Part shown: positions 35,387 to 39,520 of the stretch, in pieces
Numbering within the stretch: the first letter of the stretch is position 1
Layout: every line of letters begins with the position of its first letter
Source of the DNA: Methanobacteriota archaeon
GTDB taxonomy: Archaea; Methanobacteriota; Methanobacteria; Methanobacteriales; Methanobacteriaceae
Direction of reading: 5' to 3'
Assembly (NCBI GenBank): GCA_963787255.1
Contig: CAWBCJ010000029.1
Coordinates: 1 to 64,000, forward strand
Length of the DNA stretch: 64,000 bases
Notes under the pieces: model-generated
Told to the model about the DNA's origin: nothing
What the model saw: only the letters and a program-made list of their open reading frames with translations
The model's database searches: none
Translations under genes and position numbers: made by a program

Positions 35387-36028
35387 TTAACATAATTTGT
35401 ATATTTGCATTCCTAATTTCATCAAATATCCTCTAAGTTCCTCAAAGTTCTTCTGCAACATTCGATCATATCTTTTAATGGTTGATGAGATGTCGTGTGC
35501 TTCAATATTGGTAGTTTTATAATTTTCTCTACTTTTTATCTGTTCATTAATCTTATTTGCATGCATGTCAATATCTCTAATTTTAAGGAGAAGTTCTGAC
35601 TTTTTAATTTCATCAGGTAAAATATTAACAATTATTATCTCCCAAAATCCAGTTTTAAGGGGCATTAAGGGCTTTAAAATTAACTTATTCCTTTTTGGGC
35701 TTTCAGAAAATTTATTGTCTTCTATTAATTCCAGTTCTTCGTCGATAATGTTCTGGTTATACCCTAATATCTGTAAATTGTATTCCAATTCATTTTTAAC
35801 TGCTATTAATGCTTTTCTTTCAACCTTTTTCTTATTATGTTCTCTCCAACCCATTGTTGTTAGAACTGCGATTACAGCAGTTAAAGGAACAATTAAAATC
35901 CTGACAATTGCATTAAATTCGCCGACTAAAATAGCAATTACGAGCAAAATTATTAAAATAGCAGCAAAAATACCAGCTATCCACCAAATATGTTCAAGAA
36001 GCCATTTCATCATATCACCCTTTTTCAA
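35387..36028 (-). CDS. Hypothetical 2-TM protein with a helical soluble domain
   Basis: 213-aa ORF overlapping the larC stop; GGTGA RBS before the ATG near 36013. Confidence 0.7.
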
Positions 36029-37230
36029 TATTTATCCATTAATTTCTTAAATGTTTCATTGGCCCTTTTCATAACGTCCTTTAAAGGTATGCCTGTTTCA
36101 TCAGCAATTCTTTTTGCATCCTCATATTCTGGGCTGTAATTAATTATGTCTTCTCCAATTTTTCCAATTTTAATATTTATTTCATGGCCTATTTCACCAA
36201 TATAAATTTTTATAGGTGTAATTTCTCTTGTTACTATGTTTCGGTGAACATAAGGCAATATTCTAACTCCAAGTGTACCTGTTTCTCGTATTATGGCTTC
36301 TGCAACATTATTAGAGTCTCCAGGTCTGGCTATAACTCTTAAAAGATGTCCAGGTCTGTTTTTTTTCATTAATAATGGAACTACCGCAACGTCAAGTGCA
36401 CCTGCATCTAAAAGCTTATCAAATGTGTGTCCAATAACTTCTCCAGTAACATTGTCAAGATTTGTTTCCAGAATACTGATTTTATCTGTTGGAACTCCTA
36501 AATTACCAGATATTACTCTTAAGACGTTGGGAACATTTAGATTTAACTTTCCGGCACCATAACCTATTTTTTTATTGCTTATTAATGGGTAAAATTCGCA
36601 GGTTTCATCTACCATATTCACATAAAGTGCTGCTCCTGTTGGAGTTGTAAGTTCATGTTCTTCTGGTCCGCCAAATATCGGGACATTTTTCAATATTTCA
36701 AGAGTTGCTGGGGCTGGAACGCTTAAATTTCCATGTTTACTTTTTAGTCTTCCACCTCCAAGCGCGATGGGCATTCCATAGACTTTTTTATTATGAAATC
36801 CAAGATTATGGAAACAAAAGGCGGATCCTATAATGTCTGCAACTGCATCTGCGGCACCAACTTCGTGGAAATGGACTTTATCCAAAGAGGTTCCGTGAAC
36901 TTTCGCTTCAGCCTCTGCAAGAGTTTTAAAAACTCCTTTAGAGAATTTAAGCATATAATTATTGATTTTTTCATGCTTAATTTTGTCCAATCTTTCTAAC
37001 AGTTCTTTATATTTAATTAATCCTTCGTCACTTGATTTAATCGCTGCGTAGGATGCAGAGATGCCGGATTTTTGGATTTTATTTATTTTTACGCTTAAAT
37101 CTCCAAAATAAGAGGCATAATGTTCCATTATATCTATAGCGCCTTCGGTATCTGCTCCAATATCTATAAGTGCCCCTAAAACCATGTTTCCTGAAATTCC
37201 TGAGTTTTGTGGGTCTAAAATTATTGCCAT
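36025..37230 (-). CDS. larC: Nickel pincer cofactor biosynthesis protein LarC
   Basis: [48 protein letters not shown] and PEYED. Confidence 0.93.
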
Positions 37231-37653
37231 TATATCACTAAATCTTTAAATTACTTTTAAATCGGTTTATTTTATTTACTATTTTCTCTTGATTTTATTT
37301 ATAATTCCAAATCTTATTTATATATTTATTTTAGTCCATTCTGATTAAACTATGTATAAAAATTTAAATTTCTTTTTACCATTATTTTTTAATTGTCAAT
37401 TAAATCAGATTAAACCTAAAAATTATTATCTTCAATGTTAAGGAAGAATAAGAAAAGTATTAATAATTTAAATATACATATTAAGTTATAGGCATTTTCC
37501 AATAACTTAAACATAAAAAATTAAGGAAAACTAATGAAAACACAGAAAGATATAGGCTATTCTAACAAATTCATACTAGTAAAACCTTTCAAACTTTAAA
37601 AAACTAACATAAACTTAATATCATCGATAAATAATTTTATAAATATTTCAAAT

Positions 37654-38103
37654 GTGGTGGTTAGATTGAATGGTAATGCAGTAGAAATATTATTGGTTGA
37701 AGACAACCCTGCAGATGCGCGGCTGGTAAAGGAAGCTTTCAAACATTCTAAAATTAAAACTAAAATTTACGTGGCTGAAGACGGTTTTGAAGCCATGAAG
37801 TTTCTAAAAAATGAAGAAAGATACGCTGAAGAATCCAAACCAGATATTATTTTATTAGACCTAAATTTACCTCGTAAAGACGGGCGTGAAGTTTTAAAAG
37901 AGATTAAAGAGAATGAATATTTAAAGTTAATACCGGTAGTTATTTTAACAACTTCCCTTGCTGAAGAAGACATTATAAACACCTATAAAAACAATGCAAA
38001 CTGCTATATAACAAAACCTGTTGATTTAGACCAATTTATTAGTGTTATAAGATCAATACAGGACTTCTGGCTGAGTAAAGTTGAATTACCGGGCAATATG
38101 TGA
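37654..38103 (+). CDS. Single-domain response regulator (Rcp1-like)
   Basis: [32 protein letters not shown] and FWL motifs. Confidence 0.92.
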
Positions 38104-38187
38104 ATATTATGATAATAATTTAAAATCTTACCATAAATATTTAATTTTGATTAATTTAAAAAGATTATATTTAAAAAAATAGTATAT

Positions 38188-38208
38188 AAAGCTGTAATTT
38201 ACAGCTTT
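38188..38208. terminator. Perfect inverted repeat between convergent genes
   Basis: AAAGCTGTAA-T-TTACAGCTTT. Confidence 0.55.
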
Positions 38209-38720
38209 TAAGAAATTGCTTTTTTCAATTCTTCTAATTTTTGTTTACTAATTCTGTATTTTTTATTGTCCATTACTATTTCAATGTATTCTTCTTCTTC
38301 AAATTGCGCATTTACTTTCTGGACATTTTCCAATGGTTTTTGAACTGTCGGTTCTTTTGTAGGTATCAAATATAGTCCTCTGTGATCGTGAGATTTCCCA
38401 TGCGCTAAACAGTAATCTACATCACATTTTGTGCAGTACCATAGGCCTTCTGGACTGGTCCAGGATATTGAGCCTTGTTCGAATGTTAGTGTACCCTTTG
38501 AATGGCAGTTAGGACAATAGTTTTTATATACTTTTGTGTGATGTAGTCTATCAGTCATCAAACTGCAGCTACATACTCCTGTTGCTTTAACATATTCTTT
38601 TGTGACTTTAACATTATAAGCACCGATTCCATGTTCTGCTGCTGAAGATGGAGCCGCAAACATAAAAGCTGAAATTAAAAACAGCGCTAAAATCGTGCTA
38701 ACCTTAAGTAGTCTCTTAAT
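38208..38720 (-). CDS. Secreted Cys/His-rich (putative zinc-binding) protein, probable ATT start
   Basis: The signal peptide IKRLLKVSTILALFLISAFMFAAPSSAA begins at an ATT 7 nt after GAGGAGTG; CSC, NYCPNC, PEG..YCTKCDVDYC..H motifs. Confidence 0.7.
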   Translation of the reverse strand: MKRLLKVSTILALFLISAFMFAAPSSAAEHGIGAYNVKVTKEYVKATGVCSCSLMTDRLHHTKVYKNYCPNCHSKGTLTFEQGSISWTSPEGLWYCTKCDVDYCLAHGKSHDHRGLYLIPTKEPTVQKPLENVQKVNAQFEEEEYIEIVMDNKKYRISKQKLEELKKAIS

Positions 38721-38742
38721 ATAATCACACTCCTCATTTTTT

Positions 38743-38813
38743 TGGTTCGGCTTTTTGACATTGCCACTAGGTTTTGGTAACCTTGAACCAGTTGGAGCAT
38801 AATTAACACCTCC
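38743..38813 (-). promoter_or_regulatory. Structured 5' leader (candidate cis-regulatory RNA) containing an upstream RBS and ATG
   Basis: GC-rich island with pairings UGGUUC/GAACCA, AGGUU/AACCU and GGC/GCC; GGAGGTG plus ATG at 38800. Confidence 0.45.
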
Positions 38814-38824
38814 GCATAAGACTA

Positions 38825-38869
38825 GTATTACTTTTTTATTATTTGTAATACTTTATATATAAATATTAC
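38825..38869. promoter_or_regulatory. TATA box bracketed by operator-like inverted repeats
   Basis: GTATTAC-N13-GTAATAC (38825-38851), then GTAATA-N13-TATTAC enclosing TTTATATATAAA. Confidence 0.6.
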
Positions 38870-39190
38870 GAAAAGTTACCGTGAAATTATGCAATTTTTC
38901 GGCCTAATTTTTATTATTAAAATTAGAAAACGGGAACTATAATGTAAATATTTTTTAATATATAAATTTTTCGCTTAAATAATAAATAATGTCATAAAAT
39001 CAATATTTATGAATAAATTAAGCTTAATAACACTTATTAAATAAAACAAGCTTTAAATATAATATATTATAACATAAAAAGCATAAATAGAAGTTTTTAA
39101 TAATTTAAAGGAAATAAATTAGAATAAGAACAAAAATAACAAATAAATTAGCTACAATAAAATAAAAATGCAATTAATGGAGAACTATAT

Positions 39191-39520
39191 TCAGTTTCCG
39201 CTTCCAATAATTATCCGACGTATTGGAACTTCCAGTATGGTGTATTTTTCCCCTTTAAGTGCTTCCTGGACTGATTTAACTATTCTATCAACCCTTTCTT
39301 CCTCTACAACACTACAAACAAGAATTGCATCCTTTGCGTGATCCCTTATCATTGCTATTGCTGATTTAGGATCCTCCTTAATGGAAAATCCTTTCCAATC
39401 CTGGGGAGACATTCCCTTATATTCTAGAATATAAAATCCAGTGATTCCAGCATCTGTCAAAGCATTCATTGCTTTTCCCAAATTTTCGATCTCAACAAAG
39501 ACCCTAAGATGAACCTTCAT
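39191..39520 (-). CDS. MJ1244-like methanogen protein with a PII-like fold
   Basis: [31 protein letters not shown]; 109 aa with a GlnB-like beta-alpha-beta pattern. Confidence 0.65.

Follow-up and report, generated by a model that had tools for sequence, protein, structure and literature searches.

The locus considered here raises the question of whether the short region ahead of a secreted-protein gene is a cis-acting RNA control element and, if so, how it acts. The window, i.e., the whole stretch of 64,000 nt of archaeal DNA that was analysed, forms the beginning of contig C29 of a 2.47 Mb genome. Its minus strand carries, in this order, a PII-like gene (PF10126, 39191-39520), a 380-nt AT-rich spacer, the leader, and a 170-codon gene (38720-38208), whose 3' neighbour is a convergent response regulator. 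The leader, about 110 nt long, contains an upstream Shine-Dalgarno (SD) sequence GGAGGUG (38813-38807), complementary to the organism's own 16S rRNA 3' end and placed at the genome's common spacing from an AUG at 38800, which opens an upstream ORF (uORF) of 37 codons (38687-38800, TAG at 38689-38687). This AUG lies within the switch strand UAAUUAUGCUCC (38794-38805). There follow an inner domain (38743-38790), in which helices P2 (38790-38785 with 38748-38743) and P3 (38783-38779 with 38773-38769) precede a variable loop and which carries a GUGGC motif (38763-38767), and a run of seven A residues (A7, 38737-38743). The main ribosome binding site (RBS), GGAGUGUGAUU with its AUU start (38718-38733, AUU at 38720), lies at the end of the leader, the AUU 80 nt from the upstream AUG. 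The original prediction, whose second RBS corresponds to 38733-38723, was correct in all its statements at the level of letters, including those on the uORF and the junction helices. Its description of the element as GC-rich holds relative to the upstream spacer (38-41% vs. 17%), but not relative to the gene (35%) or the window (34%).

A TATA-like box TTTATATA (38856-38863, minus strand), with a similar box at the same place in most copies of the genus, is the probable promoter, and transcription would then start about 20 nt upstream of the upstream RBS. Between the two lie twin GTAWTAC boxes, 13 nt apart (38825-38851), a possible repressor site, the spacing of which is 13, 12, 9, or 3 in relatives. 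Control by NikR was considered but not assigned, the spacing being 13 nt here compared with 14 in the enriched class that holds the nikR promoter. Twin boxes with 14-nt spacing account for 17 of 43 intergenic sites (G000 C1:82044 and C1:34184 among the loci); one lies between nikR and a CBS gene, others precede a Rieske ferredoxin, a response regulator, and an MFS transporter, and a pair spaced by 10 nt precedes cbiM/nikM. These boxes may mark a regulon. A contig of RNA run X19 covers 38182-38502, short of the leader, and was not accepted as proof of transcription of the gene; RNA reads over the leader itself were not found. Within the genus the PII-like gene, the secreted-protein gene, the response regulator, and a fourth gene are syntenic (window 36025-39520), relatives' copies of the fourth matching the nickel insertion protein PF01969; in other genera the neighbours of the secreted-protein gene differ. 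Contig C26 of the same genome has GC-rich stretches unlike the remainder (39% overall) and small contigs repeat parts of C1 (C1, C2, and C3 are concerned), which is probably due to contamination or strain duplication.

The main gene appears to start at the AUU: the distance from the SD to AUU-AAG is the one common in the genome, and the codons that come next encode a basic-hydrophobic signal peptide. In several relatives a stop codon sits directly before the AUU, which fixes the start. Among 126 ORFs of the protein family, 97 have an SD-led AUU, AUA, or AUC and no SD-led AUG, GUG, or UUG before the hydrophobic stretch, 64 of these being devoid of any AUG, GUG, or UUG there, and 15 have an SD-led usual start. 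Genome-wide, with contig C26 left out, the strict AUU/AUA/AUC class takes in 5 of the 151 ORFs with a signal and 30 of the 2166 others; loci of the same genome with AUU or AUA starts include C25:54386, C29:1065497, C18:127052(-), and a paralogue near C29:348800. AUU and AUA starts thus seem typical of the family and are probably used by some further secreted genes of this organism as well. For 21 of 28 database relatives, inspected by eye, the start has been placed either upstream or so far into the gene that the signal peptide is cut short, and genes of the family are therefore routinely mis-annotated.

The encoded protein (38208-38720, minus strand) is a secreted, Cys/His-rich protein of 170 aa outside named families, with no match in Pfam, PHROGs, NCBIfam, PDB sequences, Atlas, or profiles. 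It has 226 relatives at 50% clustering. Close relatives carry the source name Methanobacterium sp., which makes the organism a Methanobacterium-like member of the Methanobacteriaceae. The protein model (pLDDT 70) resembles Rieske-type folds weakly: the top 43 structural matches listed are Rieske-type by title, the best of them (Z 7.2, rmsd 3.5, 75 aligned) lying below the tool's caution line, and Foldseek gave E 0.07. Family members in genus g25 lack the cysteines. The Cys/His domain (window 38211-38630) has Cys-poor and Cys-free subfamilies and is also found C-terminally in larger proteins. The protein gives no firm clue to a signal for the leader.

Conservation of the leader was examined in 151 genomes of the family. 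Of the 13 genomes of the genus other than the present one, 12 gave a full-length match in a DNA search (identity 80-86%, E of at most 1e-18), each directly before the orthologous gene, and a protein-first search found the orthologue in 21 of 23 genus genomes and the leader before all 21; of the remaining two genomes one has a paralogue only and the other (84% complete) gave no match. In 14 of the 21 copies, near-duplicates having been dropped, identity is 90% over the 52-nt core from the upstream SD to GUGGCA and 92% over the main RBS. It drops to 63% in the mature domain and 59% in the signal peptide, and to 51% in the linker and 50% in the sequence farther upstream. As the core is more conserved than the gene, selection acts on the nucleotides. 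In genus g24 a diverged leader is found at two of three orthologues, and the third has lost the upstream SD, the upstream AUG, and GUGGC together.

Related leaders occur in three more genera of the Methanobacteriaceae, always before the secreted-protein family. Among 135 distinct family ORFs in the fetched loci, 38 have an upstream SD-AUG plus TGGC: 21 in genus g1, two in g24, a second copy in a g1 genome (L080), nine in g25, four in g18, and one in g8. The g25 copies comprise all nine members of a protein-defined clade. The g8 copy (L202) has the upstream RBS, GUGGC, and the hairpin but is without predicted P1, the long helix described below, and is a doubtful member. Since copies outside g1, g24, and g25 were picked by their upstream RBS or by models built from such copies, the presence of the upstream RBS there is not independent evidence. 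Model and pattern searches added four further loci (one g18 genome; two loci identical, one before a broken gene). Three pattern matches outside g18 were coding or unrelated sequence, and of 16 weak model or pattern matches inspected only two, the identical g18 copies, were real. Intact-looking leaders at L016:1487-1530 and L257 precede genes frameshifted just past the start, either pseudogenes or assembly errors.

Common to the copies is the order upstream RBS, C-rich anti-SD strand, one or two GUGGC, variable hairpin, main SD, and AUU, with the two ribosome sites 78-134 nt apart and, in one copy, a 55-nt insert in the variable linker. Sequence homology between close and distant leaders is thin. 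A model of the close type has L106 as its only significant match (E 5.6e-5 within 23 loci), and a model of the distant type recovers the window at E 0.59. From the shared architecture and the shared gene it is concluded, with moderate confidence, that close and distant leaders are one family. The original prediction proposed, as a check, a search for copies before other envelope genes; in the genomes searched, no credible copy was found ahead of another gene family. A second copy in the same genome was not found either, viral contigs gave 0 matches to a 20-nt leader pattern, and a search for related loci in genome and metagenome contigs returned four distant paralogues each, none with the leader. 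In a protein tree of 84 rows and 99 columns, from which a core filter had dropped the g18 leader rows, leader-bearing proteins are not one clade, and seven changes, at least four of them forced, are needed. Paralogues without the upstream RBS have, in several genera, a leader of a second type, composed of GUCC, a variable stem, GGAC, and a conserved GGAGGCGGUAUA-AUU (upstream of paralogues at L017, L019, L022-L024, L028, L081-L084, L087, L140-L149, and L184), which is a candidate second RNA motif.

The uORF differs widely from copy to copy. It is 8-49 codons long in the 23 close copies, the distant copies having 3-21 codons, and its stop is found from -101 to +64 nt of the AUU in all three frames, in-frame copies all stopping first. 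With 3-49 codons in every frame, only its start site is kept, and the variable stop and frame exclude stop-start reinitiation. Control through a leader peptide is highly improbable: third positions of uORF codons 2-7 are slightly the least conserved (0.95, 0.93, and 0.82 by codon position), as such control would suggest, but codon 4 is L, Q, P, S, or V, beyond codon 6 the reading frame is displaced by indels, and the peptides are wholly different between genera. Homologues thus keep nucleotides while the peptide diverges, and the leader-peptide element and leader-peptide attenuation of the original prediction, for which neither a conserved peptide nor control codons were found, are not supported. 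It is also conceivable, if very unlikely, that uORF translation decides whether transcription ends prematurely in the leader or the mRNA decays there. Archaeal polarity is ascribed to FttA (PMC12548453), and a ribosome bound to the leader could act as a shield; on the other hand, a bacterial-type scan found no terminator-like site in the leader, the linker is A-rich rather than U-rich, the length of the uORF is free, and the conserved pairing is directed at the RBS.

The least probable of the alternatives, with next to no likelihood, is that a programmed -1 frameshift, or an assembly error at A7, joins the uORF to the secreted protein. In this copy the arithmetic is right, as the 80-nt distance between the upstream AUG and the AUU and a main frame open upstream mean that a single added A, or slippage by -1, would join the two ORFs, and six related copies with a 7-A run share this possibility. 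It is not conserved, however. Of the 23 close copies, 13 permit a -1 shift, and 16 have no run of six or more A in the usable window; six of the seven that do belong to a single tight clade, of which two further members have an early stop. Among the 15 distant copies none allows the fusion, and the stop directly before the AUU in several relatives also argues against it. The run itself belongs to the variable linker, with 3-7 A in relatives and A6 in a near-identical strain. A8 was not seen in four sequencing runs, the single bridging contig being A6 at a depth of 4.1, which may be an error. In two studies an A-to-G change is found at 38747, which keeps the P2 pair as U-G.

Also conserved, above all in the close copies, is the potential for pairing. 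In the minimum-energy fold UAAUUAUGCUCC, with the upstream AUG, pairs with GGAGUGUGAUUA of the main gene, and some folds extend over the AUU; the resulting helix, P1, is predicted to comprise 11-16 bp between the upstream AUG/CUCC strand and the main SD with its AUU. The pairing of CUCC with the upstream RBS, which was originally proposed, survives as an alternative state (P0), whereas the minimum-energy fold joins CUCC and the upstream AUG to the main RBS. As CUCC can pair with either the main RBS or the upstream SD, the RNA is predicted to have two states. Of the proposed three-way junction the helices are present in this copy, but the third arm, GGC/GCC, pairs in only 2 of 23 close copies and is strain-specific, and for the inner domain an alternative hairpin accounts for the close copies nearly as well (paired cells, 91% vs. 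93%). The junction alone beats 196 of 200 shuffles (z -2.49), and longer windows are unremarkable (z -1.71 and -1.02).

P1 is better supported in close than in distant copies. In every one of the 23 close copies 0-17 of 300 shuffles give a better duplex, compared with 20-210 of 300 in the 15 distant copies, none of which is individually significant. All 12 P1 pairs are kept in 19 of 19 distinct genus rows, where each change preserves pairing, and g24 lengthens P1 with its own letters on both strands. Long-range pairing of the main SD exceeds 0.5 in 97% of 37 leader copies (L073 was left out for length) and in 30% of 80 of the 82 leaderless paralogues, with means of 0.77 and 0.32, the sequences being kin rather than independent. 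Over six lineages the assignment of anti-SD strands, chosen by a C-rich pattern, to their cognate SD is matched by 3 of 720 permutations, although the cognate pair is the best in only three of the six lineage rows. Covariation, proposed as a check, gave compensatory-pair counts not significantly above shuffles (184 of 500 reach the score of the OFF fold and 500 of 500 that of the alternative fold), in a sequence-only alignment in which g24 rows are out of register, close copies are very alike, and distant ones are not structure-aligned.

Folding of the growing transcript predicts that the hairpin between the upstream SD and CUCC, whose four pairs are kept in 21 of 21 rows, forms first and is followed by P1 once the main SD emerges. 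In the OFF fold the upstream SD is predicted to be mostly free (probability of being unpaired 0.86) and the upstream AUG and the main SD to be shut. When the region from the upstream RBS to AUG+15 is masked, the computed cost of opening the main RBS falls from 6.3 to 0.0 kcal/mol in this copy and from 6.4 to 3.0 kcal/mol on average (n=38), although in 8 of the 38 copies masking lowers it by 0.1 kcal/mol at most, or raises it. In every lineage the uORF either contains the anti-SD or stops shortly before it. In one g18 group (L106, L186, L226, L257, and L263) a uORF of 5-6 codons ends inside its own small hairpin, 5' of the anti-SD strand.

Activation by ribosome loading is therefore favoured by the position of the anti-SD, the folding order, and the effect of masking, and we put the chances at about even that the leader shuts off translation of the main gene until its structure is opened by a ribosome that loads upstream. 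In the full transcript the upstream AUG/CUCC strand would pair with the main SD and the weak AUU (P1) and hold the gene OFF, while the upstream SD would stay exposed. A ribosome would load there, before P1 forms or by invasion from the exposed SD, and cover the switch strand, so that the main RBS would be freed for a second ribosome. The uORF would serve as a loading site, its peptide and stop being without importance, and the inner domain with GUGGC would be the likely signal input. Two features of a uORF-activated leader are found, namely an upstream SD with a start at usable spacing and, by prediction, a stem over the main RBS with one strand in the path of the uORF ribosome, the latter weaker in distant copies. 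The decayed g24 copy is also counted in favour of the switch. What is shown is the sequence, its conservation, the absence of constraint on peptide and frame, and the predicted folds; formation of these folds in vivo, translation of the uORF, and the resulting activation of the main gene are inferred.

A simpler explanation is that P1, the AUU, and a decoy uORF across the main RBS merely hold output low, without any switching. P1 is stable, the main SD being predicted to be unpaired at 0.2% at 37 C, 10 of the 23 close copies have a uORF that extends beyond the AUU, and occlusion by an upstream RBS is reported in bacteria (PMC13285730). We nevertheless regard this static damper as improbable, since the uORF ends before the main start in 13 of 23 close and all distant copies and a damper would need no 90% conservation of a 52-nt core. 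The helix hiding the SD is also the layout of an RNA thermometer, which is as improbable as a leader peptide; in the computation the unpaired fraction rises only to 0.5% at 45 C and 11% at 65 C, the main SD being 98% paired at 55 C.

Ribosome loading leaves GUGGC and the apical hairpin unexplained. TGGC is kept in every leader copy and doubled in several while its pairing partner varies, and it is conceivable that GUGGC binds a ligand, protein, or RNA. Rather unlikely, though the foremost of the alternatives and compatible with ribosome loading, is a sensor in which a metabolite, a metal ion, a protein, or a small RNA bound to the inner domain moves the RNA out of P1 into the short upstream hairpin and frees the main RBS, the upstream RBS acting as an anti-anti-SD or amplifier. 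The layout is that of a riboswitch, with a conserved 5' core, a variable linker, and an invading strand that bears the SD; the invariant upstream hairpin, predicted first in transcription, agrees with it, as does a small N-GC-AAN-GC-N hairpin shared by the distant copies, the outer pair of which changes on both sides. Against it, the inner domain differs much from genus to genus, and where a riboswitch would be expected before several linked gene families, all credible copies in the genomes searched precede one protein family rather than a pathway. No trans-acting RNA partner with strong complementarity stood out in the same genome, and complementarity of GUGGC to 16S rRNA (7-10 nt) was rejected as background, as 350 of 500 background 16-mers reach at least 7. 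Rfam 15 gave no family for the leader (the best score, 19.2 bits at E 2.4, falls short of the 81.9 required); a scan of eight loci gave only a tRNA elsewhere and a scan of four loci none at E<=1. These scans agree with the view that this is not a named RNA family, and with the copies in relatives they support the original proposal of a conserved cis-regulatory RNA. The findings named in advance as refuting it, A8 in the reads with homologues conserving the peptide alone, or an element unique to this genome, did not turn up.

The bulge motif of T-boxes is UGGN. A translational T-box (PMC7583486) likewise has an SD sequestrator, and GUGGC resembles its bulge, but the leader is far shorter, has no Stem I or specifier, the about 50 nt 5' of GUGGC being used by the upstream RBS, P1, and P3, and does not precede amino-acid genes. 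Translational riboswitches (PMC11549558) share the conserved 5' domain, the variable linker, and an alternative fold that sequesters the SD; the leader differs by the lack of an Rfam match, the single gene family, the conserved upstream AUG, and a ligand that is only hypothetical. Closer parallels are found in bacteria. In Salmonella, translation of the mgtQ uORF before mgtB is proposed to release a stem-hidden RBS (PMC8092293), and an RNA-unfolding model of translational coupling likewise has a translated uORF free such an RBS (PMC12548453). The likeness is that translation of a short uORF is proposed to open the RBS stem. However, mgtQ needs specific codons, whereas the methanogen leader conserves none, and the leader differs from both in being archaeal, in a switch strand that pairs with either SD, in its AUU start, and in an extra conserved inner domain. 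An upstream SD and start codon with a dispensable product are also described for Sinorhizobium (PMC13285730), where control is by coupling of overlapping uORFs or close-range occlusion, in contrast to two sites 78-134 nt apart joined by a long helix.

Two further systems show single features of the leader. In hok/mok-type leaders translation from a hidden RBS depends on a uORF, and infC has a conserved AUU start used in autoregulation. No antisense RNA was found for the leader, however, and its gene is not an initiation factor. The literature searched held no such leader and no AUU starts in Methanobacteriales, though supplementary motif lists or subscription papers could hold either, and the available part of PMC7531240 does not mention AUU. 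Most likely the leader is an undescribed RNA that works like a known bacterial kind; the archaeal host, the strand shared between two SDs, and the AUU start appear distinctive.

Natural cis-acting RNA controls that have been validated in archaea are few, fluoride being the one validated native riboswitch class named in the available text of PMC11549558, and the leader may be among the few natural RNA switches found in these organisms. It is tempting to speculate that it is an archaea-specific sensing RNA, in which a GUGGC domain with its ligand (a metal, a metabolite, a tRNA end, or a protein) hands the anti-SD strand between two RBSs and so gates an AUU-started family; this is more doubtful still than a sensor in general, but if true it would mean a native methanogen riboswitch class together with conserved AUU initiation in archaea. 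The pairing of a strong AUG with a weak AUU could also tie output to start-codon stringency. The leader is short, occurs in at least four genera with natural variants that include a decayed copy, and makes sharp predictions for reporters in tractable methanogens, and its study exposes a family of secreted proteins that usually start at AUU or AUA.
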